From contig JBEKNV010000010.1 of NCBI GenBank assembly GCA_049522395.1, positions 7,918-71,917 of the forward strand: DNA of 64,000 nucleotides, given 5' to 3'. A model generated the notes under the pieces. It worked only from the letters and a program-made list of their open reading frames with translations. It had not been told where the DNA came from and did not search any database. The position numbers and the translations under genes were made by a program. Positions 45,816 through 62,173 of this stretch are shown here, one piece after another (the stretch's first letter is position 1; the number at the start of each line of letters is the position of its first letter). The DNA is from Methylovirgula sp. (GTDB lineage Bacteria > Pseudomonadota > Alphaproteobacteria > Rhizobiales > Beijerinckiaceae).

Positions 45816-47483
45816 ATGATAAATCTTGATGTCTTGGCGTCGATCCTGGCCGGACTCGGCCTATTTTTCATTGGCATCAAAGGGATCGCGGCAAATCTTG
45901 TTCAATTGGCCGGGCGAAGTCTGAGGCTGTGGGTTGCGCGATCCACCGGCAGCTATCCGATGAGCGCGCTCATCGGCGTCGTCTCGGGAGCGCTGACCCA
46001 AAGTACCAATGCCGTCACCGTGATCTTAATGAGCTTGGTGACAGCCGATCTCATTACGCTCGGCGAGGCGACGCCGATCCTCGTTTGGGCCAATGTCGGC
46101 ACCTCGGCTCTGGTGCTGCTCATCGCCATCGATATTCATCTGTTCGTCCTGGCGATCACGGCGGCAGCGGGCCTCTGTTATTATTTCAATCTCGATCGCT
46201 CGCCGCGCTGGCGTTCCTTGGTCGGAGCCCTGTTTGCTATCAGCCTGCTGTTTCTTGGCCTCGAGCTGATGCGCAGCGGCACGCATGAGCTGCGCGAAAT
46301 CGCCTGGGTTAGCGACGCTTTGCATCTTGCCGCGCGATGGTACGCCTCCGCCTTTGTCATCGGCGTCGTGCTCGCCATTATCGCGCAATCGTCGGCCACC
46401 GTGACGGTGATGGTGATCGCCATGGTGTCGGCCGGGCTGCTCACCTTGGGTCAGTCGACGATGATCGTCTATGGCGCCAGCGTCGGCTCTGGCGTGGGCA
46501 CGTTTCTGATCGCTTCCGGCGTCGGCGGGACCTCGCGACAGCTGCCGATCCTGCAGGCGATCGTTAAAATGCTGGGCATCGTCGTGCTCCTGCCTTTTTT
46601 TATCGTCGAGCACACGTTCCATGTGCCCCTGATCAACCATGCCATTCACGCGCTGACCAGCAATCCAAGCCGGCAGGTCGCCTATGTCTATCTCACCTGC
46701 CAGATCGCAGCCGTCATTGCGCAGCTTATTTTTTCGAAGCTGATCCCGCCTCTGTTGCAGCGCTTGGCGCCGCCCTCGCAAGAGGAGGCGGTTTCCAAGC
46801 CGCGCTATCTTTATCATCAGGCGCTCAGCGAGCCGGAATCCGCTCTTCCTCTCGTCGATCGCGAGCAGGCGCGGGTCTTCAATTTTCTGCCGCTCTATCT
46901 CGGTGTCTCTGACCACCTCGATGAGAGCGAAGTCGTTCCTAAAGAGGGCACGGTACTCGGCGCCGCAACCGCGCTCGATACCGCCATCGGGCGTTTTCTC
47001 AGCGACCTCGCCGATACCTCGCCGAGCCGCGAGCTGCTCGACAAGATTGCCAACCGTCAGGCGCGCAACAGTCTGCTTCAGTCGGTTCACGAATCGCTTG
47101 CCGAACTCGCCGCCGCCATCGCCGTTCCCTTTGAGACGCCGGCGATGCGGTCGCTCAGTGGGAATCTGTCAGAGGGGCTCGCGGGGTTGCTCATGGTGGC
47201 GGCCGATGCGGTGCGCTCCGGCGATCCGGACGAGCTCGCGCTGCTGCGCAAGCTGACGGCCGACCGCGATAGCCTCGTCGACCAATTGCGCAAGCGGGTT
47301 ATCGCCGCCGACAAAGCCCTGTCGGCGCGCGATCAGCACCGGCTCTATACCCTCACCAGCCTGTTCGAGCGGATTGTCTGGATGCTTCGGCGCTACGGCA
47401 GTCTGCTCGCCGTCGACATTGAGAGCGTACAGGCCGCCGAACCGGCTTCTTCGCTGAAAGAAAGCGCCGCCACCCTGTCCTAA
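45816..47483 (+). CDS. Na/Pi-cotransporter-family membrane protein with PhoU-like C-terminal region
   Basis: 555 aa. Duplicated Na_Pi_cotrans-type segments ([25 protein letters not shown]; [23 protein letters not shown]), then a helical soluble C-terminus. Confidence 0.75.
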
Positions 47484-47572
47484 AAGGTGGGATCGGCGTA
47501 GGGTTGGCGCAAAGGCTGCAGGCCCGCTCCGATGGGGACGACGGTTTCGCGCAGCGCGGCGGCTCAAGGGAG

Positions 47573-49141
47573 ATGGGGGAAATGCTGCTTAACCACTGGA
47601 AATTAGGCCCAAAAATCTATCTGGTCGTTGTCCTCCTTGCATTGGTGACGGCAGCCATCGGCGCGCTCGGCGTCGACGCGATCCAAACCTACAATCAGAA
47701 CGTCAATGCCATCAGCCGTGCGTCACGCAACGCCGTGATGGGCGAGAAGATCATGGGCCTGATCGATGCGGTCGGCATGGATTCGCACAGCGTGACCACA
47801 TCCGCCACCAATGCCGACGCCGAAAAATTCGCGCCGCAGATCGTGCAGAATTTGCAGCGGATCGGGGACCTTCGGCAACAATGGGTCGGGCTCGCAGAGC
47901 CCGAAGATAAGACGACGATGGACCGCATCAGCGCGGAGATCGACGAATTCATCCAATCCGGAACCGAATTGGTGCGCCTGGCGCGTGAAGGCACCATTGC
48001 AGATGCCCGGGCCTATCGCGACAGCGATGTCAACCGTGCTAGCCGGGAGCGTCTGCGCGACGATGTCGCCGCCCTTGCAGACTCGAACAGTGCGCGCATC
48101 GATCGGTTGAGCGGCGAAGTCGCGGCTTACTACAACACCCATGTCTGGCTTTTGGGGCTCGTCACGCTCTTTGTCGTGTTCGGCGGTATCTTTCTCGCGA
48201 TTCTCTTTGTTCGCCGGCTTCTGACCCAGCCGTTGGGCCAAGTTAACAACGCGATGAAAAAGCTGGCAGCTGGCGACACCACGGCGCCTGTGCCCGCGGA
48301 TCGCGGCGATGAGATCGGCGATATGGCGAAAGCCATGCGCTCCTTTCAACGCCAGGCGGTCGCGGCCGATAAGCTCACGGTTCAAGTGACGGAAGACGTG
48401 GGCCGCATCGCGCTCGCGGCGAGCCAGGCGAGCAGCGCAGTGAGCCAGGTCTCCGATGGTTCGAACGTCCAATTGAGTTCGTTGAAGAAGACCGCGGGCG
48501 CCGTCAACCAGAGTACGCTTGCCATTTCCGATGTCGCGAAGAACACACATCTCGCCAGCGAACAGGCCGGCGCTGCCGCGGTCCTCGTCACGGACGGCAT
48601 GAACCGGATGACGGACATGGTCGCGATCGTCAACGCAATCGCGGAGAGCAGCAACAAGGTCCGTTACATCGCAGACGCGATTTCGCGGATTGCGAGTCAG
48701 ACGAACATGCTGTCGCTCAATGCGGCAATCGAAGCCGCACGCGCCGGCGAGCATGGCAAAGGCTTCGCGGTCGTCGCCGAAGAAGTGCGCAAGCTCGCGG
48801 AGAATTCCGCTTCGCTTGCGCAGGAAATTGCCGATCTCGTCAGCAATTCGACATCGCAAGCCGGGCAGGGCGTCGCGATGGCGGATGAGGTGAGCGACAA
48901 GATGCGCCGCATTTCCGATACGGTTCGTCAAAGCGACAAGCTGATGGGGTCCATTGCGACCGCCATGGCGGAGCAACAAGCCGCGATTTCGGAAATCAAT
49001 GCGAGCCTGAATGAGCTGACGCGCATCGGCCAGTCCAATGCGACGGCGGCGGAGGAAATCACCGCCACCATGCTCGATCTCAGCAAGCTCGCCGAACATT
49101 CGCGTGGCGAACTCAACAAATTCGCCGAAATCTGGACCTGA
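47573..49141 (+). CDS. Methyl-accepting chemotaxis protein (two TM segments, helical periplasmic domain, HAMP)
   Basis: TM1, an about 165-aa helical periplasmic region, TM2, HAMP ([16 protein letters not shown]...EIGDMAKAM). Signalling tip is [31 protein letters not shown]. Confidence 0.92.
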
Positions 49142-49159
49142 CCAGGCCCGAACCCACCC

Positions 49160-50137
49160 ATGGCGCACCCGATCGACACGACCCTCGCGCTTCTGCATGA
49201 CGTGATGACAGCACATCGGCAGGCGCTGACGCGCGGGCCGCAGACCAATGCGCCGGCCGCGATTTTTCTGCCGCGCGGCAAGCGGGCCGATCTCGTGTTG
49301 CGACTGTTGGCGGGCGTCGAAAAACGGGTGGGGATCGAGGTGGCGCAGGCCCCCGCCGAAAAACTGCTGCGCGGCCTTTCCGCGGTCGACACCGGCGAGA
49401 TCGAAAGCTGGGTTTCGGAACTCGAGATCCTGCCGACGACGCATCCGCAATGGCTGGCGCTCATCGAAAGCCTCACGGTTCACGAAACCTATGTGATGCG
49501 CGATCCGGCGCAGCTCGAACATTTCGCGGCGCAATTGCCGAGCCTGATCGCTGAGGCGGAGACATCGCATCGCCTGAATTTCTGGTCCGTCGGTTGCGCG
49601 ACGGGCGAGGAAGCCTATTCGATCGCCGCTCTCGTCTTTGACGCCATGCTGGCGGCGGGCCGCGCTGCGGCGACAGAGACCGCTATGACCCTCGTGCCGC
49701 CTTGGCGGATCGAGGTTCTGGGATCGGATGTCTCTCGCTCCGTCCTCGATCAGGCGCGCGCCGGCCTTTACGAGACCGGACCCTTGTCGTCATTCCGCGC
49801 CGAGTCGGCGCTTGTGCTCCGTCATTTTCCGATGACGCGCGACAAGGGCAAGGCACGCGCGGCGGCGCCGCATCTCAAAGCGGTCACCGCCTTCTCACCG
49901 TTCAACTTGGTCGACAGCAGCCTGCCGGACCAAAAATTCGACGCCGTCTTCTGCCGCAATGTCCTGATCTATTTCAGCGGCCGCGCCCGCCGGATCGCGC
50001 TCGACAAGCTCATGCATGCCGTTCGCCCGGGCGGCTATCTGGTTCTGGGCCCGACGGATACACTGAGCGACACGGCGCTCTTCGACGCCGTGTGGGGACA
50101 GGATGCCGTCATCTATCGTCGGAGGCAGAATGGCTGA
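49160..50137 (+). CDS. cheR: Chemotaxis protein methyltransferase CheR
   Basis: 325 aa with FWSVGCATGEEAYS SAM motif and FCRNVLIYF. Confidence 0.9.
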   Translation: MAHPIDTTLALLHDVMTAHRQALTRGPQTNAPAAIFLPRGKRADLVLRLLAGVEKRVGIEVAQAPAEKLLRGLSAVDTGEIESWVSELEILPTTHPQWLALIESLTVHETYVMRDPAQLEHFAAQLPSLIAEAETSHRLNFWSVGCATGEEAYSIAALVFDAMLAAGRAAATETAMTLVPPWRIEVLGSDVSRSVLDQARAGLYETGPLSSFRAESALVLRHFPMTRDKGKARAAAPHLKAVTAFSPFNLVDSSLPDQKFDAVFCRNVLIYFSGRARRIALDKLMHAVRPGGYLVLGPTDTLSDTALFDAVWGQDAVIYRRRQNG

Positions 50138-51458
50138 GGCCCTACGCTCCGATCCCGCTGGCCGCTCCACGGCCCTGCTGTTTCAACTTGACAAGAAATG
50201 TTGGGCACTGGATGCGGCTTTTGTCGCGCGCGTTCTGCCCAATCAGCCGGCCCGGCCGGCGGGTTTTCTTCCCTTGCAGTTTTCCGGTGTCGTCGCCTAT
50301 GCGGGCGAAGTGTTGCCGCTCCTCGATCTACGCACACGGCTCAATTTGCCCGAGAGCGAAAGTCCCGCTGGCGAATTGCTCGTCCTTACTTTCGGCGCGC
50401 AAAGCTATGCGCTGCGTGTGGAGCGTGTCATTCAGATCGTCGTGCGCAATGAAGGGCAAGACCTCATCTGGCGCGGACAAACCGTCACCTTCATCGATGT
50501 TGCGGCAGTGCTATTGGACGCGCTTGAAGAGACCGCATCGGCCCCTCCTCAAGCACCGACGCGAAATCGGGCGATAGAGCCGATTCATCCGACCGAGATG
50601 GCGGAACTGCCGGGACTGGATGAAATCCGCGCCGCGACGGCGGCGAGCCTCGTGGTCGAGACGGCCTCCGGCCGTGAACGCCTGCCGCGTTACAGTGTCG
50701 TCGAGCTATGTGAGGATTTGCCGAGGGTCGCAGTTCCCGATCCGCGACTGCTCTTTCAGGGAGCCGCGTTTTATCGCGATCAGCTTCTGCCGATCGTCTC
50801 GCTTGACCGTTTGTTGGGACGAACGGGCCAGGAGCCGTCGGCGGACAAGGTTTTCGTCATCGTCGATGTCGCAGGTCGGCTGTGCGCGATTTCAGTCAAA
50901 AGCGTTGTCGGCATGTCGAATGAGCCGGTGTCCAACATCGATCTGCGCGCGCTCCTGCTTGAACATCTCCCCGAAGGGGCGGAGCGGCTTGCGATGCAAC
51001 AGCAGCGTCCCGCTGAGACACCGGCGGAAGAGGGCACGCGCTTTCTTGTCACCGAGGCGGCGGGGCGGCCGTGCGGGTTCAGCCTCGACTCCGTCATTCA
51101 TATCCATGCCGCAAGCGCGGTGATCCGCGCGCCGAGAACGCAGGGCGCGGCCCCGATCGGCGTTGCGGCGATCGCGGGACGCGTCATGCCTGTCCTCGAT
51201 CTTCCCGACAGCCTGGGGCTCGGACAGGGAGCCACGCGCCAGCAATTCATCGAATTTGCGTCGCCTGACGAGGGCAATTTCGCCGTCGCCGTGGACCGCG
51301 TTGTCGGCATCTCTTCGATCGCGCCGAGCGCGCTGCTGCCGGCGCCGCGCGGCAGCAACATCAGCGCAGTCGTCTCGCAAGGGGACGCGTCGCTTCTCTG
51401 GATCATCGATGCTGTGTTGCTCGCGCAGAGCCTGCAGGGGGGTGCCCATGTCGGCTGA
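50130..51458 (+). CDS. cheW: Scaffold protein with three tandem CheW-like domains
   Basis: Start ATGGCTGA overlaps the cheR stop, after GGAGG. Three repeats follow the CheW pattern (FxL...ALxxxxVxxV ... G..LPxxDL ... VDxV). Confidence 0.8.
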   Translation: MAEALRSDPAGRSTALLFQLDKKCWALDAAFVARVLPNQPARPAGFLPLQFSGVVAYAGEVLPLLDLRTRLNLPESESPAGELLVLTFGAQSYALRVERVIQIVVRNEGQDLIWRGQTVTFIDVAAVLLDALEETASAPPQAPTRNRAIEPIHPTEMAELPGLDEIRAATAASLVVETASGRERLPRYSVVELCEDLPRVAVPDPRLLFQGAAFYRDQLLPIVSLDRLLGRTGQEPSADKVFVIVDVAGRLCAISVKSVVGMSNEPVSNIDLRALLLEHLPEGAERLAMQQQRPAETPAEEGTRFLVTEAAGRPCGFSLDSVIHIHAASAVIRAPRTQGAAPIGVAAIAGRVMPVLDLPDSLGLGQGATRQQFIEFASPDEGNFAVAVDRVVGISSIAPSALLPAPRGSNISAVVSQGDASLLWIIDAVLLAQSLQGGAHVG

Positions 51459-52545
51459 TGCGAAGCACACCGATCTCGACATGCCGGTCGCGCCAATCCG
51501 CGTGCTCGTCGTCGACGATCAGAGTTTTATGCGCATCGCGCTTCGACAAATGTTGGAGGCGGAAGGCGACATCCGCGTGGTGGGCGAAGCGCGCAACGGG
51601 ATCGAAGCCGTGGCTATGGCACGCGAGCTGAAGCCCGACGCGATTACCCTCGATGTCGAAATGCCGGAAATGGATGGGCTTCATGCTTGCGAAGAAATCA
51701 TGCGCGATCCCTCGCCACGTCCGGCGATCATCATGGTGAGCGCCCATACGCAAGTGGGAGCCGAGGCGGCCGTGCAGGCGCTGCGTCTCGGCGCGGTCGA
51801 TTTCGTCTCGAAGTCATCGGCCTTCGCCAAGACCGATCTTGCCCATATCGACACCGAGCTTCGCCCGAAATTGCGCGCCTGGGCCAAGCGGCGCACGGTG
51901 GCCTCGCCGAGCGGCGGCTCGGGAAAGGCAGCGAAGCCATCGCGCCATTGGCGATCCGATCTCATTGTGATCGGCGCATCCACAGGCGGACCGCAGGCCT
52001 TGACGAAATTGCTCACCACGATGGGAAAGATCCACACGCCCATCGTCATTGCGCAGCATATGCCGGAATTTTTCACCGCGAGCCTCGCGCAGATGCTGGC
52101 GCAGGATACGAAGACCGATGTGCGGGAAGGCGAACATCGCGGCGTTCTCGGCCCCTCGAGCGTCACGCTCGTTCCCGGCGCACGCGATGGAATCATCGGC
52201 TTGCATCATTCCGGCGGTTATGAGCTGCGCCTGGTCAAGATCGACGCTCATGTTCATCCTTCCGCCGATGCCCTGTTCGAATCCGCGGCGTTGCTCAGCC
52301 GGACGCCCGTCGGTGTGATCCTGACCGGCATGGGCGAAGACGGCGCCAAGGGCGCTGCGGCCTTGCGGCGAAAAGATGTGCCGGTTCTCGTGCAAAGCCC
52401 GGAGAGCTGCATCGTCGCCGGCATGCCGCAGGCGGCCTGCGCTGCGGCGCCCGGATGCGAGGCGCTCAGCATTGAAGAAATTGCGTACCGTCTCAGTGTG
52501 TGGGGCGCGGAGGATTTGAACGCCGCGGGAGCGGCAAGCCCATGA
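51448..52545 (+). CDS. cheB: Protein-glutamate methylesterase CheB
   Basis: Receiver domain (VLVVDDQSFMR...TLDVEMPEMDG) plus esterase domain (GASTGGPQAL). Overlaps the cheW stop by 11 nt. Confidence 0.92.
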   Translation: MSADAKHTDLDMPVAPIRVLVVDDQSFMRIALRQMLEAEGDIRVVGEARNGIEAVAMARELKPDAITLDVEMPEMDGLHACEEIMRDPSPRPAIIMVSAHTQVGAEAAVQALRLGAVDFVSKSSAFAKTDLAHIDTELRPKLRAWAKRRTVASPSGGSGKAAKPSRHWRSDLIVIGASTGGPQALTKLLTTMGKIHTPIVIAQHMPEFFTASLAQMLAQDTKTDVREGEHRGVLGPSSVTLVPGARDGIIGLHHSGGYELRLVKIDAHVHPSADALFESAALLSRTPVGVILTGMGEDGAKGAAALRRKDVPVLVQSPESCIVAGMPQAACAAAPGCEALSIEEIAYRLSVWGAEDLNAAGAASP

Positions 52546-52581
52546 GCGCGCGTTTTCCATCACTCCCTCGATCAGCGGAGC

Positions 52582-55377
52582 ATGTTTTGCCGCATGGCTT
52601 CTGAACTTGACGCCTTATGGAATGAATTCGCGGCGGAGACCGAGGAACAGCTCGATGCTCTGGAGCGGCTTTTGTCGGAGCGGCCGGCTGAAGGCTGGAG
52701 CCGCGATTCGATTTCCGCTCTGTTTCGCTATTTCCATTCGCTGAAGGGCACATTTCTGGCGATGGGCTTCGCCAATGTCGAAGCCGTGGCGCATCGCTGC
52801 GAAGATGTGTTGAGCCTCGTCCGCGAAGGCAAATCGCCCCTCGATCCTCCGCTTGTGCAGACGATTCTGCGCGCCGTCGATCGGCTCAAGGGCATGCGCG
52901 AAGACGTGATCGATACCCATAAAGACGCCAACCCCGCGAAGGACATTCTCGCCGATCTCGAAGCGCACGGGGCGCATCGCTCGGACGAACCCAAAGCGGC
53001 GCCGGCGCCGACCCACGCCGCCCTGCCGCTCGCCGAAGATCCGGAAATGCTGACGATCTACGCCGAGCTTCTGGAACAGCGTCTGCCCGAGCTTTGCGGC
53101 GCGCTGACGAGCGATCCGCAGGCGCGGGCGGCGGCCAAGGATACGGCCGATACGCTCGCCTATGGCGCCGAGATGATGGGCTTTGAGGCGCTCGCAGGCA
53201 CGTTGCAGGGCTTTGCCGAGCTGTCGGGAACGGCCGCGACCGAGGAGGAACGCGACGCGATCATCGCGCGGCTCGGCGAATTGCGCGACCAGATCAAGAT
53301 CATTGAGGAGGTGACGGGCGGGAGCGCCGGCGCGGCGGCGCTCACAAAGGCAATCGCGACGTCGCTTGCCCACGATTATACGGAGAGCATCAACCGTCTT
53401 GCCGCCGCTTTGGCGAACCCTCAGGAGCCGGCGTCTATCGTCGCGGCCGCTCAGACGGCGCGGTCGCTTGCGTCCTGCCTCGGCTTCGACGAAAGCACGC
53501 GCTTGCTGCTGCTGATCGAGGAGAGATTCCGGGGCTCAGAGTCACTCGACCCCTCGCAGGCTGCGCAATTCGCGGCGCTCGCGGTCGAAGCGCTGGAGAT
53601 GCTGGGATCGGCCGCGCGCTCGGAGCAGGATGTTTCAGCTCAAGCGAGTGCCGGTCTTGCCGCCCGCTTCGTGCAAAGTTTTCGGGCACCGGCTGTTGCC
53701 GATATCGCGCTCGCGACGATCGAACAACGGCTGCGGCCGGAAATGCTCGCCACTTTGTCGAGTGAGCAAAGGAGCAAGCTCGAGCAAGCGCTCTCCGAGG
53801 GCCGGCGGCCCTATGAAGTCCTTCTCGAACTCGAAGGCCATCGCGAGACGGCCGCCGACATCATCGCGTGGCTTTCGACGTCGGTCGAGACGATTACCAG
53901 CCGAACGGTTACGCGCGAGGGCGTCAATTGCTTCGAGTTTCTGATCCTCTCGGACCATGCCGTCGAATGGGTTACGGGCCAGCTCGCGGCGCTCGATCCG
54001 GAGCGCCTCTGCTTGCGCGGCATCACCGATCTCAACAGAGGCGTCGAGACGGCGGCGAGCGAGCCCACCGGCGGCCAATCCGTGCGCGCGCCGCTCATCC
54101 GCGTCCGCAGCGAGACGATCGACGAGCTCATGGCCGAAATCGGCGACATGCGCAGCCATCTCGCGCGCCTCGCCGATATTTTGCAGCAGGGCCGCATCGC
54201 CAAGGCTGTTGAGGCCGGAAGGCGCATTGGGACGCACGCCATCGCGCGCGATCCGCAGTTGCAAGAACAGCTCGACGCGATGGAGGAAGATCTACGCGAG
54301 CTGCGCGATCTGGAACAAGCGTTGGAAGGGACGCATCGCCGCGTTTGGACGGCGGGATTGCAGCTGCGTGTCGTTCCCGTCGATGGGCTTTTCGGGCGCC
54401 TGTCGCGCGCGGCGCGCGATGTGGCCGAGAAACTCGACAAAGACATCGATGTCGTGATCGAGGGCCGCGAGGTGAGGATCGACAAGAGCATGGTCGACGG
54501 GTTGATTGATCCGCTGATGCATATGGTCCGCAACGCCGTGGACCATGGCCTTGAATCGCGCGAGCGGCGGATCACGCAGGGCAAATCCGCGCGCGGCCGG
54601 CTCAGCATTTCCGCATATGAGCGCGGCAATCATATTGACATTGTGATTGCCGACGACGGCCGCGGCCTCGACCGCACGAGGATTCTCGCCAAGGCCATCG
54701 ACCTCGGCATTCTTGCGCCGGAACAGGCGGACCAGATCGCCGACAGCGAAGTGACGGCGCTCATCTTTCACCCCGGGTTCTCGACCGCCGATGCGGTCAC
54801 GGAAATTTCCGGACGCGGCGTCGGCCTCGATGTCGTGGCCGCGACCCTGCATCGGCTCGGCGGCACGATCGACGTGCAAAGCACCTTTGGCTCAGGGACG
54901 ACCTTCAGCCTGAAGTTGCCGCTGTCCGCCTCGCTGTTGCGCGTGCTTCTCGTCGAAGTGGAGGGGCAAACCTTTGCTCTGCCGGAGCGCCAAGTCGTCA
55001 ATGTCCTTGAGATCGGCCGGCAGATGGTTGAGACGGCGGGCGACGGGCGGGTCGTGCTTCACCGAGGCGCCGCGGTTCCGGTTCATGCGCTCGCCGCCGC
55101 GCTCGGCTTCCCGACGACGCCGAACGATTCCGATCTTGTGCGCCTGGTGATCGTTTCGACCGGAACCGAAACGATAGGTTTGCAGGTTGATCGCATTCTG
55201 CGCTTTCAGGATCTCTTCTTGAAAGAGCTGCATCCGATCCTGGCGGCATCGCCCCTCATCGGCGGCGCCTCGGTCCTGGGCGACGGACGGCCAGTTCTGG
55301 TTATCGAAGCGCGCGGCTTTGCGACGCTCGGCTTTCCCGACGCGAGCGACAAGCCCAAGGCGGAGGCAGACTCATGA
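52582..55377 (+). CDS. cheA: Chemotaxis histidine kinase CheA with extended N-terminal region
   Basis: Hpt motif FRYFHSLKGT, dimerisation region, HATPase boxes (HMVRNAVDHG, DDGRGLD, GRGVGLDVV, GSGTTFSLKLP) and a C-terminal CheW-like domain. Alternative start at 52594. Confidence 0.92.
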   Translation: MFCRMASELDALWNEFAAETEEQLDALERLLSERPAEGWSRDSISALFRYFHSLKGTFLAMGFANVEAVAHRCEDVLSLVREGKSPLDPPLVQTILRAVDRLKGMREDVIDTHKDANPAKDILADLEAHGAHRSDEPKAAPAPTHAALPLAEDPEMLTIYAELLEQRLPELCGALTSDPQARAAAKDTADTLAYGAEMMGFEALAGTLQGFAELSGTAATEEERDAIIARLGELRDQIKIIEEVTGGSAGAAALTKAIATSLAHDYTESINRLAAALANPQEPASIVAAAQTARSLASCLGFDESTRLLLLIEERFRGSESLDPSQAAQFAALAVEALEMLGSAARSEQDVSAQASAGLAARFVQSFRAPAVADIALATIEQRLRPEMLATLSSEQRSKLEQALSEGRRPYEVLLELEGHRETAADIIAWLSTSVETITSRTVTREGVNCFEFLILSDHAVEWVTGQLAALDPERLCLRGITDLNRGVETAASEPTGGQSVRAPLIRVRSETIDELMAEIGDMRSHLARLADILQQGRIAKAVEAGRRIGTHAIARDPQLQEQLDAMEEDLRELRDLEQALEGTHRRVWTAGLQLRVVPVDGLFGRLSRAARDVAEKLDKDIDVVIEGREVRIDKSMVDGLIDPLMHMVRNAVDHGLESRERRITQGKSARGRLSISAYERGNHIDIVIADDGRGLDRTRILAKAIDLGILAPEQADQIADSEVTALIFHPGFSTADAVTEISGRGVGLDVVAATLHRLGGTIDVQSTFGSGTTFSLKLPLSASLLRVLLVEVEGQTFALPERQVVNVLEIGRQMVETAGDGRVVLHRGAAVPVHALAAALGFPTTPNDSDLVRLVIVSTGTETIGLQVDRILRFQDLFLKELHPILAASPLIGGASVLGDGRPVLVIEARGFATLGFPDASDKPKAEADS

Positions 55378-55742
55378 TGGCGAGCGAGCGCTATCTGTTC
55401 TGTTATGCGGGGGACACTGCCTTTCTGGTGCGCGCCCATTTCCTGCGGCACATCTGGACGCGATCCACGCCGACCCCCGATGAATTCCAAAGGGTCGAAG
55501 CGGTCGACCTTCGCCGACGTCAGGGCCAAGCGGCCCGTGACGAAGGCGTTGCGCTCGGGTTGGACTTGCCCGGCGGGGCAGACGTCTTGCTCGTCGATCG
55601 CATCGGCGGTTTCTCTGACGTGAGCGAAGACGAGTTTCTCGCCCTGCCTTCCGTCTTCGAATTTGCTCGTCAGACGTTCGACGCGGCTTGCCGGCGCGCT
55701 ATCGGAGGCGTTTATCCCCTGAGATTGCGGTTGGGAGCCTGA
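55374..55742 (+). CDS. Minimal CheW-like protein
   Basis: ATGA overlap with the cheA stop. 122 aa following the CheW pattern (RYLFCYAGDTAFLVRAHFLRHI...VEAVDLRRR...VLLVDRIGGFSDVSEDEF). Confidence 0.55.
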   Translation: MMASERYLFCYAGDTAFLVRAHFLRHIWTRSTPTPDEFQRVEAVDLRRRQGQAARDEGVALGLDLPGGADVLLVDRIGGFSDVSEDEFLALPSVFEFARQTFDAACRRAIGGVYPLRLRLGA

Positions 55743-55745
55743 CGC

Positions 55746-56732
55746 TTACGCGCGCTCGGGACCGTTGTAGCGGATCACCAGCAGCGTCACATCATCCGCC
55801 ATGGGCGCGAGCGCCATGTAAGCATCGACCTGCGAGATGATGTGACCGAAAAGTTCGGTCGGATGGGCGCTTGCTTGCTTCTTGAACAAAGCGATAAGCC
55901 GTTCCTCGCCGAAGAGATTGCCGCCGGCATCCGTCGCCTCGGTGACGCCATCGCTGAAACAGACGAGCAGCTCTCCTGGTGCCAGCTGACAGCGCTGCGT
56001 TGGGTAAATGAAGTCTTCCATTATGCCGAGCGCCATGCCGCCGAGGCCGGTCAGCGTATCGATCGCCCCCGAATTGCGCAGAATATAAGGCGGGTTGTGG
56101 CCGGCGTTGCCGTAGTGGAGTTCGCCCGTGTTGGTGTTGAGGATGCCGTAAAAGGCGGTGGTGAACATCAAGGTCGGGTTGTCCATGCAGAGCATGGCAT
56201 TGACGGTGCGCAGACAGCCGCCGGGATCATCGAGTTTTTGTGATGCGGCGCGCAGCAGGGTGCGTGTCAGCGTGATGAAGATCGCGGCCGGCAGGCCTTT
56301 GCCGGCGGCGTCGGCGACGACAAAGCCGAGCCGATCCGGGGCGAGGAGAAAAAAGTCATAGAGGTCGCCGCCGACCTCCTTCGCCGTCACCATGCCGGCG
56401 TGAAGATCGAAATCGCGGCGATCGGGAAAGGGCGGAAAATCCTGCGGCAGACCGGCGAGCTGCAGGTCGGTGGCGAAATCCCATTCCGCCTGTTCGGCAG
56501 CGGCGCGGTCGCGAGTGCGCAATATATCAAGCACGAGTTCAAGCTGGAAGCTGCGTTCCTTGAGATTGATTTCGTGGTCGCCGGCGCGCCGATGCAGCCG
56601 CTCCGTGAGCAAGGCAAGCCCCACCACCGGGTCGGCATTTGATTCAAATTCACGCAACGCCGCGGAGCGTTCGCTCTCGGGCAACAGCTTGATCAGCCCG
56701 TGGCCGATGGGGCGTAGACGCTCGTCGCTCAT
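55746..56732 (-). CDS. PP2C-family (SpoIIE/RsbU-like) serine phosphatase
   Basis: Start MSDERLRPIG at 56732. Motifs GGDLYDFF, VVADAAGKG, FSDGVTEA and DDVTLLV. Confidence 0.88.
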   Translation of the reverse strand: MSDERLRPIGHGLIKLLPESERSAALREFESNADPVVGLALLTERLHRRAGDHEINLKERSFQLELVLDILRTRDRAAAEQAEWDFATDLQLAGLPQDFPPFPDRRDFDLHAGMVTAKEVGGDLYDFFLLAPDRLGFVVADAAGKGLPAAIFITLTRTLLRAASQKLDDPGGCLRTVNAMLCMDNPTLMFTTAFYGILNTNTGELHYGNAGHNPPYILRNSGAIDTLTGLGGMALGIMEDFIYPTQRCQLAPGELLVCFSDGVTEATDAGGNLFGEERLIALFKKQASAHPTELFGHIISQVDAYMALAPMADDVTLLVIRYNGPERA

Positions 56733-56764
56733 GCCGTCAGACCCTTGATTGCCACCCGACACGA

Positions 56765-57223
56765 TCAATGTCCCTCGCTGCGGCTCTGAGCGCGCTTTGC
56801 CATGGCGGCGACGTCGAGCGGCGGAAGGCCGATGGCGGCGCGCACGACCTTCAGAATCTCGTGACCGCATTTGGCTTTCAAATCGAGACTGATCGCGCCG
56901 GACGGCTTGGCGATCACATCGAAGGCGCCGAGGCGGCGCGCCTCTAGCGCGGCGGGCGAACCGAGTTGCGCGACGGAGGACAAGATCACGACTTTCGTTT
57001 TACTCGTGAGCTTGAGACGTTTCAGGACATTCAACCCGTCAAGGCGGGGCATTTCGATATCGAGCAGAACGACCTCGGGCTTCAGCTCTTTTTCCTTTTC
57101 GAGAGCGACCTGTCCGTCTTCGGCTTCGCCTGCGATTTCCAGATCCTCGTCCACCACCAAAATCTGTTTGACGATATTCCGCATGAAGCCGGAATCGTCG
57201 ACGATGAGAACCCGATGTACCAT
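56765..57223 (-). CDS. Stand-alone response-regulator receiver, CheB-N-terminal type
   Basis: 152 aa. VLIVDDSGFMRNIVKQIL...PEVVLLDIEMPRLDG...AFDVIAKP resembles the CheB receiver plus linker. No methylesterase domain. Confidence 0.85.
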   Translation of the reverse strand: MVHRVLIVDDSGFMRNIVKQILVVDEDLEIAGEAEDGQVALEKEKELKPEVVLLDIEMPRLDGLNVLKRLKLTSKTKVVILSSVAQLGSPAALEARRLGAFDVIAKPSGAISLDLKAKCGHEILKVVRAAIGLPPLDVAAMAKRAQSRSEGH

Positions 57224-57234
57224 TGGCTCTGTTC

Positions 57235-57666
57235 CTAACTGGCCGGTGCGGCCGGCACCTTCTTAATCATCCTGAGATGATTGCGCCCGTCCACGCGGGA
57301 ATATTCCACCTTATCCATCACCGTGCGAATGAAATGGATGCCGAGGCCGCCGATGTCGCGGTCCTCGACCGATTTCGCGGTGTCAGGCGCCGGCCGCGCA
57401 AGCGGATTGAAGGCGACGCCGTCATCGATGATCTCGGCCGCCAGCGCATCCCCGTCAAGCTCGATCCGGGCGGTGATCCTGTGCCGTTCACCATCTGAAA
57501 ACCCATAGGAGATGATGTTCGTCAAGAATTCATCGAAGGCAAGGGTCAAGTGAAAGATCGCTGAGGCTGGCAGATGATGTTTTTCGCCGAACGCCTCGAT
57601 GCGCGCGGTCAGCCCGGCGATCTCGGCCACGTCGTTGTCGATTTCGGCTAGGAGTTGATCGCCCAC
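57235..57666 (-). CDS. RsbW/SpoIIAB-like anti-sigma-factor serine kinase (HATPase_c_2)
   Basis: 143 aa with N-box FDEFLTNIISYG, IDDGVAFNP and DIGGLGIHFIR. Confidence 0.85.
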   Translation of the reverse strand: MGDQLLAEIDNDVAEIAGLTARIEAFGEKHHLPASAIFHLTLAFDEFLTNIISYGFSDGERHRITARIELDGDALAAEIIDDGVAFNPLARPAPDTAKSVEDRDIGGLGIHFIRTVMDKVEYSRVDGRNHLRMIKKVPAAPAS

Positions 57667-57848
57667 AAGTCGCGCCTTACCGCAGCCTGCGGCCTTGCAC
57701 CGGAACTCTCCGCCGCCTCGGGACCGAACGGCTCGCCGCCAGAATTGCCGAATCCTTGTGCCCTGTCCACTTGGTCAAATCCAGTGGCCTAAGCTTAGTT
57801 CGGCAAGCCTTCTGTGGCGCATCGGAAGACGGAAAGGATAACTTCTTT

Positions 57849-57878
57849 TTGGCCAACGCCTTCTCCAAATGTTATAAA
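57849..57878 (+). promoter_or_regulatory. Candidate sigma70-type promoter for the STAS/RsbW-like pair
   Basis: TTGGCC (57849-57854), N18, TATAAA (57873-57878), about 70 nt upstream of ATG 57949. Pattern match only. Confidence 0.3.
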
Positions 57879-57948
57879 AACGTCACAGGGATGGGAGTAC
57901 TGGATTGCGGCGGACTGCACAGGACACGCCGGGTCTTAGGGGGATTCC

Positions 57949-58284
57949 ATGGACATGATGGTCGACGAACTCGACGGCGGCGTCACCACTGTCGCGCTGC
58001 GGGGACGGTTCGATACGCAAGGCGCCGAATCCGTCGATTTGCGCTTCAGCGTGATCGCCGGGTCCAAATCCGCCGTGCTGGTCGATCTGTCCGATGTCGA
58101 TTTCCTGGCTTCCCTTGGCATCCGCGTCCTGCTCAGCAGCGCCAAAGCCATTCAGCGCAAAGGCGGCAAACTGGTCATCGTTGCGCCGGAAGGCAATGTG
58201 CTGATGGTGCTGAAAACCGCCGGCATGGAAAATCTGATCCCTATCTTTCCAGAGCGCGACGCCGCTATGGCCGTGTTCGGCTGA
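57949..58284 (+). CDS. STAS-domain anti-sigma-factor antagonist
   Basis: 111 aa. VDLSDVDFLASLGIRVLLSSAK retains the conserved Ser, and NVLMVLKTAGM is also present. Confidence 0.88.
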   Translation: MDMMVDELDGGVTTVALRGRFDTQGAESVDLRFSVIAGSKSAVLVDLSDVDFLASLGIRVLLSSAKAIQRKGGKLVIVAPEGNVLMVLKTAGMENLIPIFPERDAAMAVFG

Positions 58285-58298
58285 GCGCGGGCCGGCCG

Positions 58299-58763
58299 AT
58301 GGCGGCGCAAGGCACATCGCCTCATCCGCGCCGTCTCGAACTCTTCTGCGATTTTGCCGAACTCGAGCGGCTCCATGACTTCGTTCAGAAGATCGGCGAG
58401 GCCGAGAGTCTCGACACCGATCAAATCTTCGCGCTCGATCTCTGCCTCGAAGAAGCCGTCACCAACATCATCATGCACGCCGGATTGAAGGATCGCGCCG
58501 GCACGCTCATTTCCGTGACGCTTCTTTCGGGCGCGCCGGAACTGGCCTTCTGTCTCGAAGACGAGGGCCGGCCCTTCGATCCGACCAAGGTCGCTGAGCG
58601 GCCCGCGCCACACTCACTGGAAGAGGCGCCGATTGGCGGCGTCGGGCTGCCGCTCATGCGCAAGCTGACGACCGCCATGCGCTATGAGCGCGACGGCAAT
58701 CGCAATCGCCTCTTCCTTCAATTCGGGCCGGGCGGGGCGGTCCCCGATCCCACTAATGTTTGA
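58299..58763 (+). CDS. Second RsbW/SpoIIAB-like anti-sigma-factor serine kinase
   Basis: 154 aa with N-box LEEAVTNIIMHAG, LEDEGRPFDP and PIGGVGLPLMRKL. Confidence 0.85.
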   Translation: MAAQGTSPHPRRLELFCDFAELERLHDFVQKIGEAESLDTDQIFALDLCLEEAVTNIIMHAGLKDRAGTLISVTLLSGAPELAFCLEDEGRPFDPTKVAERPAPHSLEEAPIGGVGLPLMRKLTTAMRYERDGNRNRLFLQFGPGGAVPDPTNV

Positions 58764-60522
58764 AGTGCAGAGTGAGCACGGTCGCGCCGTGTTCTTGGGT
58801 GCTGCGGGCGCGATCGGCTTGCCGGCGGACGAGAAAGCCTGACAGACGGCGCGGTCCTTCGGCGGTCTCAAGCAAATCTTCCTGCGATGGCGGCCATTCG
58901 GGCAGGTCTAGCGCAATCCCGTCGTAAGAGAGCTTCGCGTCGATATCGAATTCGTCAAAGCTGACGGCGAGCGCAATCGGCCCTTTGACCTGGCAGAATT
59001 CCACAATCGCCTCGACAGCCTGCTGGACGACGAATTCAAGCCGCGAGACGACATCGCGCCGCGCGCCCCAAGTGCCGGCGGCGCGCTCGATGAAATTCAC
59101 GATCTCGCCCGGCTGCACATTCGTCGAATCGACGCTCATGACCACACTGCGCCTGATGCCGAGGCGAAAGACGAGATTGAGCGAAAGAGCGACGAGAGTC
59201 GCGAGCACGAGCGGCGAGGTGACGAGGGGCCTCGCCCATTGCGGCACGTCGGTGAAGGCGGAGGGGAAGACCGAGACCATGAAAAACGCCATCATGCCGG
59301 CGCCGATTACCAAAGTGCGGCGCGGATCCAACACGCGGGTCGAGATGATCTGAATGCCGCTGATCATGATGAAGACGGCGGTGAAGACGAGCGCGGCTGC
59401 CATCACCGGCGGCGGCATAATGGTGAGAAAGCCGACGAGCGTCGGTTGAAAGGCGCAAAGCGCGAGAATGGGTGCAATGACAAAGGCGATGCGGCGGCTC
59501 GCGACGCCCGTCGCGGCGACAAGGCCGACATTGGCGGTCGAGATCGTCAGACCGTAGGTGCCGAAGAGGCCGGCGACTATATTGGCGATGCCGTCGCCGA
59601 AAATGCCGCCGCTGATCGAATGCGGATCGGGCCGCACCCAATCCGCGTCATTGAGGCGCTGATAGGTCGTGACCACCGCCGTCGAACTCATCGCCGCCGC
59701 GAGCGCGGTCACGGCAAAGGGGATCACCATGGAGCCATCGAAGGTCCAATGGACATTGGTGAAGGAGGGCAGGGCGAGGAGCGGTTGCGCCAAAACCTTA
59801 TGAACGTCAGCCGGCGTGATGTAGCCCGTCGGACCTGAGAGCGCGTAGCCGACCAGCATGCCGACGAGGATGCAGAAAAGACGCAGCCGGCCTTTGTTCC
59901 AAATGTTGAGCGCAATCATCGTCCCGATGCTGAGGCCGGCGACGAGCGCACCGCGTCCCGAGATTGCCTTGCCGCCGGCTTCGTCCAGCATGATGTGCAA
60001 GGCCGCGAGGCCGATGATGACGCCGATCAGAAACACGACCATGCCGGCGGTTTCCGGCGGAATGAAAACGCGCAGACGCGACCAGACACGCGACAGAAGC
60101 ACTTCGACAAAACCGGCGAAGAGCGTCATGCCCCAGACGAGCGGCAGGCCGCCGATTTTCACCGCGAGCAGCGAGGGGCCGAGAAAGACGCCGGTGAAGA
60201 TCGCCGGCGCGAGAAAGCGGCTGCCGACAGGGCCACGCGGAATGGCTTGCAGAAGAACAGCGACCGCCATCACCAGCATCGCGCGCCGCAGGATGCTGCC
60301 GATGTCTTCCGGCGATGTGCCGGCCGCGCGCGCGATGATCAGAGGATAAATCATGAAGATCGCGACGACGCCGACATGCTGAATGGCGCTGACGATGGTA
60401 ATCGCGGTCGGCGGGATCTCATCGCTGCCGTAGACGAGGGCCGCCGGCTTGCGGCGCGGACGGTGGCTCTGCCCGGGCTCGCTCGGCGCAAAGAGACTTT
60501 TCGCGAATGAAAGTTTGCCCAT
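58753..60522 (-). CDS. NCS2/NAT-family (xanthine/uracil-type) permease fused to a C-terminal degenerate RsbW-like domain
   Basis: Start MGKLSFAKS at 60522. QHVGVV (TM1 QH motif) and NAT-signature-like TANVGLVAATGVASRR. The last about 130 aa align by eye, block for block, with the two RsbW-like proteins but lack the N-box Asn and the G2 box. Confidence 0.75.
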   Translation of the reverse strand: MGKLSFAKSLFAPSEPGQSHRPRRKPAALVYGSDEIPPTAITIVSAIQHVGVVAIFMIYPLIIARAAGTSPEDIGSILRRAMLVMAVAVLLQAIPRGPVGSRFLAPAIFTGVFLGPSLLAVKIGGLPLVWGMTLFAGFVEVLLSRVWSRLRVFIPPETAGMVVFLIGVIIGLAALHIMLDEAGGKAISGRGALVAGLSIGTMIALNIWNKGRLRLFCILVGMLVGYALSGPTGYITPADVHKVLAQPLLALPSFTNVHWTFDGSMVIPFAVTALAAAMSSTAVVTTYQRLNDADWVRPDPHSISGGIFGDGIANIVAGLFGTYGLTISTANVGLVAATGVASRRIAFVIAPILALCAFQPTLVGFLTIMPPPVMAAALVFTAVFIMISGIQIISTRVLDPRRTLVIGAGMMAFFMVSVFPSAFTDVPQWARPLVTSPLVLATLVALSLNLVFRLGIRRSVVMSVDSTNVQPGEIVNFIERAAGTWGARRDVVSRLEFVVQQAVEAIVEFCQVKGPIALAVSFDEFDIDAKLSYDGIALDLPEWPPSQEDLLETAEGPRRLSGFLVRRQADRARSTQEHGATVLTLHFKH

Positions 60523-60897
60523 GCTGCGTTCCGCCCCGTTTTGCTTTTGTGCGATGTTAGGGCAGAGGCGCACTCGTCCGCAATGGATGGGCAGTGAAAT
60601 AGAGGTCAAAGACGCGCGATTTGCCGAGTCATGGGCGAGGGCCACGACGAAAGACGCAGGCTGAAGAGGCTTTCAAGCGATCGTGCAGCGCGCGCGTTCC
60701 CATCGTGGCCGAGCTTGGCACAATGATTGAGGCGGCGATGATAACGACGCAAAGAGGCACTTTCCTCGCCGCATTGAGCGAAGAAGGTGCGTGCCAATTC
60801 GCGCCTTGTTTTGCGCGAAAGCCCGCTCTGGACAAGCTGCGGCGCACTCCATTATAACCGCGCCTCTGCCGGCCATGCGCCGGCTGCGCCTTGGCGC

Positions 60898-60973
60898 GCC
60901 CAGGTAGCTCAGTTGGTAGAGCATGCGACTGAAAATCGCAGTGTCGGTGGTTCGATTCCGCCCCTGGGCACCA
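60898..60973 (+). tRNA. tRNA-Phe (anticodon GAA)
   Basis: Acceptor GCCCAGG/CCTGGGC, D-arm GCTCAGTTGGTAGAGC, anticodon loop CTGAAAA, T-loop GGTTCGATTCC, encoded CCA. Confidence 0.95.
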
Positions 60974-61216
60974 GCGAAATCAAAGACGTAGAATAGTCAC
61001 CGCCTGCGGACAACCCGACATGCTTGGGGGTGCTCGACGCACCAGGTGTGCGGGACGGTCTGTTGGGCTTCCGAGTGATGCCGAGGCTCTCCTGAAGCAC
61101 CACGGTATGGGTGTGCTCCTGACCCGGAATGCATACCGCCTGCGCCCCCGCTAATTTCCTTATCATTTGACGCCCTCCCTAGAAGACGATTTCAAAATCG
61201 AATTCGGTGCAAAGCC

Positions 61217-62173
61217 CTAGAACCAACCCCGCACCTTGAACCAAACGAGCGGCACAATCGCGCTGAGCGCAATCACAGCAAGACCGTAAGGGTAGCCGAA
61301 ACTCCAACCGAGTTCGGGCATGTATTTGAAGTTCATGCCATAGATGCCCGCCATCAGCGTCGGAGGAATTCCGACGATCGAAACAATGGTGAGAGTCTTG
61401 AAGATTTCGTTCTGAGCGATGCCGATCAACCCGACCATCGCATCGAGCAGAAATTGCACCTTCTCAGACAGATGAACCTCGTAGTCGTCCAAGGATACCA
61501 CGTCCTGCCGCAAACTTTTCATGCGCGGTTCTAACTCGCCGCGGTCCCAATCTCGCGTCAGTTCGCCGGCGAAATCGACGGCGCGTCCCACGCCCAACAA
61601 AGTGTCTCGCGCTTCTGACGCCCGGTCACCCAATCTCCCGATGTGGCGCAATTTAGATCGGATGATGCGAGTGGAGCGGACCGCCTTTGGGCCCTCGCCT
61701 TCTGGGACGTCAAAGGTCGCCACGGAAATCGTGCGCAGTTCCGCCGCGACCTGTTCAAGATTATCGGCAAGACCATCGACGATCTCTTCGCAAAGCTCGA
61801 CGAACACCTCACGGCTAGAGGTCGGCATTGCACCGGCTTCTTTGAATCTCTGCGTGACTTCATCAAAGGCGTGCAACGTCGCGAAACGAACGGTCAAAAG
61901 CCGATCGCGCGACAAGACAAACCCGACGGGCGCCACCACGGGCTCACCGTCGCTTCCGCGTGTCGTCATCGGGATGCTCATGGAAAGCACACCATCGCGC
62001 GCGCGCAGGCGGCTTGAGCTTTCGATCTCACTGAGATGCTCGCGGGTCGGAACCCCCACACCGATGAGCAGCTCGACCTCAGCCCGCTCCGTTGGGCTCG
62101 GGTTGCAAAGGTCTACCCAGATTGGCCGCGTCCGCGCGCCTAGCGCATCATCGCCCGGAAAGACGTTCAACAT
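61217..62173 (-). CDS. corA: Magnesium/cobalt transporter CorA
   Basis: 318 aa with C-terminal [10 protein letters not shown] motif and two TM segments. Confidence 0.92.

Follow-up and report, generated by a model that had tools for sequence, protein, structure and literature searches.

This study concerns a permease gene of Methylovirgula sp., located on the minus strand of a 64,000-nucleotide stretch of contig JBEKNV010000010.1 (the whole stretch is called the window below), whose product carries an additional domain of 132 residues at its cytoplasmic C-terminal end. This domain, the tail, almost certainly has the RsbW/SpoIIAB-type (GHKL) fold of the serine kinases of partner switching, and judging by its residues it is very probably a pseudokinase. 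Partner switching, with its STAS antagonist, RsbW-type kinase and PP2C phosphatase, is the textbook route of sigma-factor control. Genes for all three of these proteins stand close to the permease gene, and a functional link of the tailed permease to such genes is highly probable. Our reading, to which we give a probability of about 0.5, is that the tail may act as a tethered, non-catalytic docking site for a phosphorylatable STAS protein, which would make the carrier an output of the partner switch.

The open reading frame (ORF) of the permease ends at 58753 on the minus strand and gives a product of 589 amino acids (aa) from the ATG at 60522, according to the ORF listing and its translation. 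From its first GTG the same frame has 630 codons; ATG 60522 was taken as the real start. A protein from metagenome bins, P0221 (589 aa, "solute carrier family 23 protein [Methylovirgula sp.]"), is identical to the window permease, and the boundaries and neighbours of the gene are reproduced by independent gene calls on three contigs. The gene and its two parts are the following.

58753..60522, minus strand: permease gene, SLC23/NCS2-fold core plus very probable C-terminal pseudokinase domain, 589 aa and stop (ORF, P0221, gene calls).
59158..60408, minus strand: 14-helix transporter core, about residues 39-455 (Pfam PF00860, 118 bits; full-length AlphaFold model).
58756..59151, minus strand: C-terminal cytoplasmic domain, residues 458-589, RsbW/SpoIIAB-like GHKL fold (AlphaFold, Foldseek, hhalign, HMM).

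The Pfam Xan_ur_permease and NCBIfam NCS2 models cover the membrane part only (about residues 40-455). The interval 58753..59150, which a first-pass annotation made from the sequence alone had set apart as an extra domain, is indeed this domain of residues 458-589.

At the level of conventional searches the resemblance of the tail to RsbW is invisible. Searched alone, its 132 residues gave nothing relevant in Pfam and NCBIfam, even at E<=1, and neither PF13581 (HATPase_c_2) nor PF02518 matched them at this threshold. BLASTP against the two neighbouring RsbW-like kinases showed no signal (E 31 and 0.93), and a profile-to-PDB sequence search returned only a spurious match to Z-isoprenyl diphosphate synthase (E 0.34). 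Since pairwise, Pfam/NCBIfam and profile-to-PDB searches are all blank, the homology of the tail can be seen only at the level of profile-profile or structure comparison.

For the profile comparison, 90 tails and 22 linked RsbW-like kinases were extracted from genome loci (numbered with L below). Iterated searches with hidden Markov models (HMMs) drifted, the tail profile absorbing RsbW kinases and the RsbW profile taking in histidine-kinase CA domains (L047, L050, L055), and therefore non-iterated "pure" sets were used. In hhalign the tail profile (n=90) aligned with the kinase profile (n=22) end to end over 132 columns, with a probability of 96.2%, E 2.5e-9 and a score of 57, whereas 20 column-shuffled kinase profiles scored 8.5-21 with probabilities of at most 5.4%. 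Against STAS and PP2C the tail profile reached probabilities of 0.3% and 1.1%. The three blocks of similarity with RsbW that the first-pass annotation had aligned are all recovered here, with one 3-residue gap only. In one of them, the N-box, the block is right and the register was off by one: the RsbW Asn corresponds to Ala505, not to Glu504, and the RsbW Glu to Gln501. The profile support for the proposed RsbW-like fold thus comes from the family-level comparison and not from the Pfam HATPase_c_2 model. The tail-only HMM also matched genuine RsbW ORFs over nearly the full length of the model, at L036:6515-6934 with E 2.5e-5 and in L046 with E 7e-4 (among 8,387 ORFs).

At the level of predicted structure, AlphaFold gave a confident model of the tail (predicted local distance difference test, pLDDT, 90.5; predicted template modelling score, pTM, 0.84), with the topology beta-alpha-alpha-beta-beta-lid-alpha-beta-beta and an ordered lid region. 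The top 17 PDB matches of this model in Foldseek are all SpoIIAB (1th8, 1tid, 1til, 1l0o), RsbW (6m36, 6m37) or UsfX (8jzt, 8ih8), with E from 4e-6 to 1e-4 and TM-scores of 0.53-0.79. Rv1364c (3ke6) comes after them, and histidine-kinase CA domains are well behind. The structural check proposed in the first-pass annotation therefore bears out its assignment, and the tail even retains the strand and helix that RsbW uses for dimerisation.

If the tail has the fold of a kinase, then we can ask: what is left of the catalytic motifs? We compared aligned columns of the 90 tails and the 22 linked kinases. The relevant elements of the window tail are listed below, the three motif remnants first and the motifs specific to the tails after them.

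59008..59022, minus strand: N-box remnant Q501-A-V-E-A505, with E/Q at the kinase-Glu position and Ala at the Mg/ATP-Asn position (hhalign register).
58918..58926, minus strand: G1-box remnant Y533-D-G535, with Tyr at the adenine-binding Asp position (aligned columns, 90 tails and 22 kinases).
58831..58845, minus strand: G2-box remnant L560-S-G-F-L564, where kinases have G-G-L-G-I (hhalign register).
59056..59070, minus strand: WGARR motif, W485-R489, loop between helix 1 and helix 2 (W 90/90, G 81/90, A 89/90, R 80/90).
58939..58956, minus strand: D523-E-F-x-x-D528, invariant, in a beta-hairpin turn (D79, E80, F81 and D84 in domain numbering, each 90/90).
58756..58767, minus strand: C-terminal H-F-x-H motif with H586 and H589 (H 85/90 and H 84/90).

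The N-box Asn, present in 22/22 linked kinases, is found in 0/90 tails, which have A (46), S (26), T (8), L (4), V (4) or M (2) at its position; the N-box Glu, also 22/22 in the kinases, is E in 51 and Q in 38 of the 90 tails. The adenine-binding Asp of G1 (22/22 in the kinases) is replaced by Tyr in 89/90 tails and by His in 1/90, and the G1 Gly is kept in 90/90 tails and 21/22 kinases. Instead of the GGxG of G2, which all 22 kinases possess, the tails have (R/K)-L-(A/S)-G, with the last Gly in only 62/90; the residue following it, aligned to RsbW Tyr118, is F/Y in 89/90. The missing N-box Asn and the degraded G2 box (LSGFL in the window tail) had been noticed in the first-pass annotation, and the former proves to be a family-wide trait. 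The change of the G1 Asp to Tyr extends its list of losses. Its proposal of a catalytically dead domain agrees with our comparison, in which ATP/Mg-binding residues are missing from every family member examined. With these residues lost, the tail is not expected to phosphorylate anything. The tail descends from RsbW/SpoIIAB-type proteins and would work in a similar way, and because it fails both their catalytic motifs and their Pfam model, the most fitting name for it is that of a new subfamily of pseudokinases within this fold.

No element of the family is more conserved than WGARR, which is invariant in alignments A1 and A2. Like DEFxxD and HFxH, it has no counterpart in RsbW kinases. W485, D523-E-F525, D528, G535 and P545 are invariant in the tails, and A487, E504, Y533, H586 and H589 are nearly so. 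The mixture of acidic, basic and His residues in the three motifs suggests a site of contact with a metal, a ligand or the carrier. From the order of the secondary structure elements, these motifs are expected close together, at the opposite end of the domain from the former ATP lid.

A survey of the fusion in databases, which the first-pass annotation had called for, revealed a large conserved family. The initial search yielded 73 tail homologues, while a profile extended over the last membrane helices collected 1,395 representative clusters at 50% identity, 838 of them at E<=1e-10, with a typical length of 565-575 aa. All of the 120 closest homologues are annotated with PF00860 only and none with PF13581, under names such as "xanthine permease XanP".

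Gene neighbourhoods were studied in 80 species-level genome loci, 45 of which had full flanks, up to 6 kb from the gene. STAS, RsbW-like or PP2C genes occur within this distance in 33/80 loci, or in 22/45 loci with full flanks; three of the 33 (L047, L050, L055) are doubtful and rest solely on histidine-kinase-type matches. In 21 loci the distance is at most 1 kb, in most cases with a shared strand and gaps of 0-90 nucleotides (nt). The linked loci belong to Alpha-, Beta- and Deltaproteobacteria, Nitrospirae, Dehalococcoidales, Acidobacteriota, Ignavibacteria, Bacteroidales, Cloacimonadota, Verrucomicrobiota, Binatia, Aminicenantes and Firmicutes, and among archaea to Methanothrix and another genome of Methanobacteriota. 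Operons in which STAS, kinase and phosphatase genes share the strand of the permease gene recur in more than 12 phylum-level lineages.

Their composition varies. In Methanothrix (L058) there is a minimal four-gene operon in the order STAS, 5TMR-LYT/SpoIIE, HATPase_c_2, permease. A betaproteobacterium has HATPase_c_2, STAS and permease, with FHA/SpoIIE on the opposite side, and Dehalococcoidales have the order STAS, permease, HATPase_c_2 (all three arrangements were confirmed with Pfam). Seven loci (L001, L002, L036, L044, L058, L063, L066) have the RsbW gene next to the permease gene, 44-90 nt away and nearer than STAS, and in six (L010, L021, L027, L028, L036, L057) STAS is the immediate neighbour at 0-75 nt. 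Ten linked loci have STAS and/or PP2C within 6 kb and no RsbW. The phospho-acceptor Ser is conserved in 37/37 STAS proteins linked to the family.

When the two closest genes to either side of the permease are counted over the linked loci, SpoIIE (18), STAS (16) and HATPase_c_2 (14) come first, followed by the input domains HAMP, REC, 5TMR-LYT, Cache and PAS; no sigma-factor family is found among the 25 commonest. Since the linked phosphatases bring their own input domains (HAMP, 5TMR-LYT, REC, FHA, Cache), the permease is the sole recurrent component left that does not belong to the switch.

Several other arrangements were seen in the survey. Two or three tailed permeases lie side by side in L017, L021, L024, L028, L054, L068 and L075, and in L028 three stand in a row downstream of RsbW-STAS; such tandem paralogues may possibly form heterodimeric carriers or tails. 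One Dehalococcoidales locus (L036:6865-8397, plus strand) encodes, right after a normal RsbW gene and downstream of the tailed permease, a 511-aa protein with HATPase_c_2 and GNAT acetyltransferase domains. In Smithella-type Deltaproteobacteria (L059, L061, L065, L077, L080) the tailed permease follows a very large gene with a product of about 1,400 aa. This protein is BcrAD_BadFG/DUF2229 CoA-enzyme-activase-like by Pfam in L059, and the other four were assumed to be alike from size and position.

In the window itself, the permease gene is surrounded by a complete set of partner-switching genes and by genes of chemosensory type.

58299..58763, plus strand: RsbW-like Ser kinase 1, 154 aa, convergent with the permease gene (HATPase_c_2 E 5.6e-21; N-box EEAVTN, G1 DEG and G2 GGVGL intact).
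57949..58284, plus strand: single-domain STAS protein, 111 aa, phospho-acceptor Ser kept in FLASLGIR (Pfam STAS E 1.3e-16).
57235..57666, minus strand: RsbW-like Ser kinase 2, 143 aa (HATPase_c_2 E 4.5e-26; aligns with Bacillus subtilis RsbW, 6m36, through N-box, G1 and G2).
56765..57223, minus strand: CheY-like single-domain response regulator, 152 aa (Pfam Response_reg E 9e-23; gene call).
55746..56768, minus strand: PP2C/SpoIIE-type phosphatase, 340 aa (Pfam SpoIIE E 4e-52; gene call).
47504..55742, plus strand: chemosensory-type cluster of MCP, CheR, CheW-like, CheB and CheA genes and a 122-aa ORF without a Pfam match (Pfam; same order in independent contigs).
45816..47483, plus strand: Na/Pi-cotransporter-family gene, 555 aa, downstream of the second STAS gene (Pfam).
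45427..45747, plus strand: second STAS gene (Pfam).

The window therefore has two STAS genes, as the first-pass annotation had it. The CheW-like protein of the cluster is a triple-CheW protein, and the gene of the CheY-like REC protein overlaps the PP2C gene by 4 nt. The chemosensory cluster is likely the signal input to the phosphatase arm. Taken together, the Che cluster, REC and PP2C genes look like a Che pathway with a non-motility output into a partner switch. According to the gene calls of independent contigs, there is no sigma-factor gene within 10 kb on the outer side.

In the relative L002 (L002:7396-9077) no chemosensory cluster intervenes, and the pair of STAS and Na/Pi-cotransporter genes lies immediately beside the unit of STAS, RsbW and permease. 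Because the two units of transporter and STAS are directly adjacent there and both occur in the window, they appear to travel together. An RsbW-like tail on the Na/Pi cotransporter was ruled out, as the tail HMM gives no match. The 11-nt overlap of the permease end with the convergent RsbW-like gene (58299..58763), also pointed out in the first-pass annotation, is present in independent gene calls. It is not conserved, however, since the closest relative (L001) has a 10-nt gap, so it carries no weight and was dropped as a functional feature. The interval 57000..61500 was scanned with Rfam to see whether a riboswitch, of the purine class or any other, precedes the permease gene; only tRNA-Phe and a sub-threshold small RNA match appeared. 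The tRNA-Phe (GAA) lies at 60898..60973 on the plus strand, opposite to the permease and about 375 nt upstream of its start.

How could a dead kinase domain connect a carrier with these proteins? Here we infer the binding of STAS, its effect on transport and the route from the Che proteins to the phosphatase from the observed fold, loss of catalytic residues, family conservation and gene linkage. Unphosphorylated STAS would bind the tail in the way that SpoIIAA and RsbV engage their kinases. The carrier would then have beneath it, reversibly and in trans, the STAS domain that SLC26/SulP carriers possess in cis; transport activity would change, in either conceivable direction. Since the tail is presumably unable to phosphorylate its STAS partner, the two would stay together until free STAS is captured in phosphorylated form, STAS-P, by the soluble kinases. 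The two intact RsbW-like kinases would phosphorylate free STAS and thereby strip STAS from the carrier, and the PP2C phosphatase would regenerate the unphosphorylated form. In the window this phosphatase is probably controlled through the adjacent CheY-like protein and the chemosensory cluster. UraA, UapA and SVCT1 are homodimers with cytoplasmic C-termini, and homodimeric carriers of this kind fit a dimeric RsbW-like tail.

Direct docking of STAS on the tail is slightly more likely than not, with indirect support from the gene linkage and from some of the contact residues. In the RsbV-RsbW structure, Arg23, Asp42, Lys44/Ser48, Glu49 and Tyr118 of RsbW make hydrogen bonds with RsbV, and Glu49 touches the acceptor Ser56 of RsbV (PMC7340262). 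In chained alignments the tail has E/Q at the position of Glu49, F/Y at that of Tyr118 and N/Q at that of Ser48.

Several observations weigh against the docking reading. By the same alignments RsbW Arg23 has become Phe and Asp42 has become Arg, so that the RsbV-binding surface is partly kept and partly remodelled, and this mapping of residues hangs on a chain of alignments at about 14% identity. By secondary-structure reasoning, the most conserved motifs of the tail (WGARR, DEFxxD and HFxH) are off the surface with which RsbW binds RsbV, which hints at a further function. In 47/80 loci there is no partner-switching gene within 6 kb, and therefore a neighbouring STAS gene cannot be a general requirement for the tail to function or to fold. 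Finally, enrichment was judged by setting 28/80 loci against the general rarity of STAS genes (few per genome) and not against a formal control set.

That the carrier is the output rather than the sensor of the partner switch is a tentative assignment, which we hold at somewhat less than even odds. The opposite direction would be that of a transceptor: the transport cycle or substrate occupancy would expose or hide the tail, which would sequester or release STAS or compete with the soluble kinases for it, so that the carrier would signal the availability of substrate to a switch with its output elsewhere. The fold, the pseudokinase character and the gene linkage apply equally to it. Two intact kinases and two STAS proteins in the window, the second STAS gene adjoining another transporter, also exceed what the gating of one carrier would need. 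We nevertheless consider a transceptor unlikely, since the linked phosphatases already have dedicated sensor domains, minimal four-gene operons such as that of Methanothrix (L058) contain no other candidate output, and the census of neighbours shows no sigma factor or other recurrent effector nearby.

It is improbable that the tail is an autonomous domain, whose old nucleotide pocket or invariant patch binds a ligand or metal or packs on the carrier, and so controls stability, dimerisation or gating, with the partner-switch neighbourhood being secondary. Such a domain would explain why the strongest conservation falls in motifs missing from RsbW kinases, and also the 47 loci without partner-switching neighbours. 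The cis-STAS domain of SLC26 carriers is needed for stability and function, according to a review (PMC8256260). An autonomous domain would leave unexplained why STAS, kinase and phosphatase genes recur in same-strand operons with the permease gene across more than 12 phylum-level lineages.

The retained N-terminal strand and helix 1 of RsbW dimerisation, together with the seven loci in which the RsbW gene is closer than STAS, would suit a scaffold in which the tail and a soluble RsbW-like kinase form a heterodimer, so that the kinase is recruited or regulated at the membrane with no direct binding of STAS by the tail. This we regard as quite improbable: the homodimeric state of NCS2 carriers makes pairing of tail with tail more likely, in six loci STAS is the immediate neighbour, and ten linked loci have STAS and/or PP2C and no RsbW.

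An active, divergent Ser kinase phosphorylating STAS would agree with the GHKL fold, the E/Q at the kinase-Glu position and the ordered lid region; it is highly improbable and was rejected on motif loss (Mg-binding Asn in 0/90 tails, adenine Asp changed to Tyr in 89/90, glycine-rich G2 lost), and intact kinases are encoded alongside. A chance resemblance of an unrelated alpha/beta domain to RsbW, which the negative BLAST, Pfam, NCBIfam and profile-to-PDB searches might suggest, is scarcely credible, since profile-profile alignment with shuffled controls, HMM-to-sequence matches and predicted structure with Foldseek concur independently and the linkage to cognate partner genes is non-random.

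The docking reading says nothing of what the carrier transports. The first-pass annotation called it a nucleobase-type permease. The fold part of this name stands: PF00860 matches with 118.2 bits against a gathering cut-off of 27 (residues 83-453 of the 630-aa ORF), and the full-length AlphaFold model (pLDDT 75) finds its best PDB matches in SVCT1, UraA and UapA (E 1e-11 to 6e-9, TM-scores against the target of 0.64-0.78), with SLC26 and SLC4 carriers next, so that the fold of the core is that of SLC23/NCS2. The nucleobase label is uncertain. The NCBIfam NCS2 cut-offs are not reached (TIGR00801, 142 against 291.8; TIGR03173 pbuX, 198 against 414; NF037981, 30.4 against 40). In characterised nucleobase carriers, acidic residues of the UraA E241 and E290 type bind substrate and proton. 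The equivalent of UraA E241 in transmembrane helix 8 (XanQ E272, UapA E356) is Ala in the window permease and Ser/Ala in 75/78 full-length family members, and that of E290, the Glu/Gln of helix 10, is likewise Ala in the window permease, with Ser/Ala/Pro/Thr in the family as a whole. The NAT signature of helix 10, canonically [Q/E/P]-N-x-G-x4-T-[R/K/G], reads A-N-V-G-L-V-A-A-T-G in the window; in the family its N, G, T and G are kept in 66-77 of 78 members, the first position is S/A/P/T instead of Q/E, and the remainder N-x-G-x4-T-G..S-R is retained. The carrier is a divergent member of SLC23/NCS2 without the canonical glutamates, and the database names "xanthine permease XanP" for the family are probably wrong.

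Most family members carry Lys and Asp a few residues farther along helix 8, and the family motif SSSNVG..TG..SR of helix 10 resembles the SVCT version (SSSPNIG). Among the neighbours in the 47 unlinked loci are genes for GGDEF or histidine-kinase proteins, purL and a gene for a xanthine-dehydrogenase-like enzyme. Several Alphaproteobacteria that lack partner-switching genes at the locus have purL (FGAM synthase) directly before the tailed permease (L015, L017, L018, L019, L020); it was checked with Pfam in L015 and L019 and assigned from size and position in L017, L018 and L020 (upstream gene end at about 4635-4718). In L023 the permease follows a molybdopterin xanthine-dehydrogenase-like gene (L023:900-3209). 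These neighbours hint at a purine-related role in that clade, and a substrate related to purines is conceivable.

If the docking reading is correct, its meaning extends beyond one carrier. To our knowledge, many partner-switching modules, including all archaeal ones, have no known target, and archaea have no sigma factors. The tailed permease is also present in such sigma-less organisms. A dead RsbW-type domain on a carrier would offer a testable target for orphan modules, and in archaea a target for STAS-kinase-phosphatase modules without sigma factors. It suggests a general way to place a transporter under phosphorylation control. We put forward, only tentatively, a widespread and unrecognised class of partner switch in bacteria and archaea, in which STAS would dock in trans on a carrier-tethered pseudokinase and gate an elevator-type carrier. 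In any case the family is large and probably misnamed, having no nucleobase-binding glutamates under the name "xanthine permease XanP", and its C-terminal domain merits a family model of its own.

It remains to compare the tailed permease with known systems. The structural and comparative part is solid, and the mechanism is conjecture. The tail shares with RsbW/SpoIIAB kinases (PF13581, GHKL) approximately the same size (130-145 aa), the same strand-helix-helix-hairpin-lid-helix-hairpin topology and the adjoining STAS and PP2C genes. Unlike them, it is fused to a membrane carrier and not soluble, falls below Pfam detection, has no N-box Asn, G1 Asp or G2 glycines, has its own WGARR, DEFxxD and HFxH motifs, and has no recurrent sigma-factor gene near its own gene. 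Mycobacterium tuberculosis UsfX and Rv1364c also have the RsbW fold and are among the best structural matches of the tail (8jzt, 8ih8, 3ke6), but both are soluble and act on a sigma factor, with no attachment to a transporter. UsfX is said, in work of Beaucher et al. from 2002, to control its partner without phosphorylating its antagonists, which would be a precedent for non-catalytic use of the fold. Rv1364c has the RsbW fold fused to other modules.

Partner switches with outputs other than sigma factors are represented by SypE/SypA of Vibrio fischeri, HsbA of Pseudomonas and the STAS-glycosyltransferase module of Anabaena, in which, as far as the abstracts tell, an RsbW-type kinase and a PP2C phosphatase set the phosphorylation of STAS. 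Our full-text literature search, taken at the level of titles and abstracts plus one review searched by term, showed no transporter-tethered pseudokinase in these systems and none involving an NCS2 carrier; within the same limits it returned no transporter as a partner-switch target. The belief of the first-pass annotation that an anti-sigma-kinase fold on an NCS2 carrier had not been described agrees with what these titles, abstracts and review contain. UraA, XanQ, UapA and SVCT1 have PF00860, the 14-helix fold and the N-x-G-x4-T-G..S-R part of the NAT signature in common with our carrier, which differs from them in the Ala/Ser equivalents of E241/E290, in scores below the NCBIfam cut-offs and in 132 extra C-terminal residues.

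The closest parallel is offered by the SLC26/SulP carriers, whose fused STAS domain has been an unexplained link of transport and signalling since 2000. They too combine a carrier fold of 7+7 inverted repeats with a partner-switch-type domain at the cytoplasmic C-terminus. In contrast, the window carrier belongs to the sister SLC23/NCS2 branch, its fused domain is of kinase type with no STAS match in the permease, and the phosphorylatable STAS would come from a neighbouring gene, in trans. If our reading is true, the tailed permease would mirror the SLC26 arrangement with its STAS in cis, and would point to an old, two-sided relationship of STAS/RsbW proteins with transporters of 7+7 helices.

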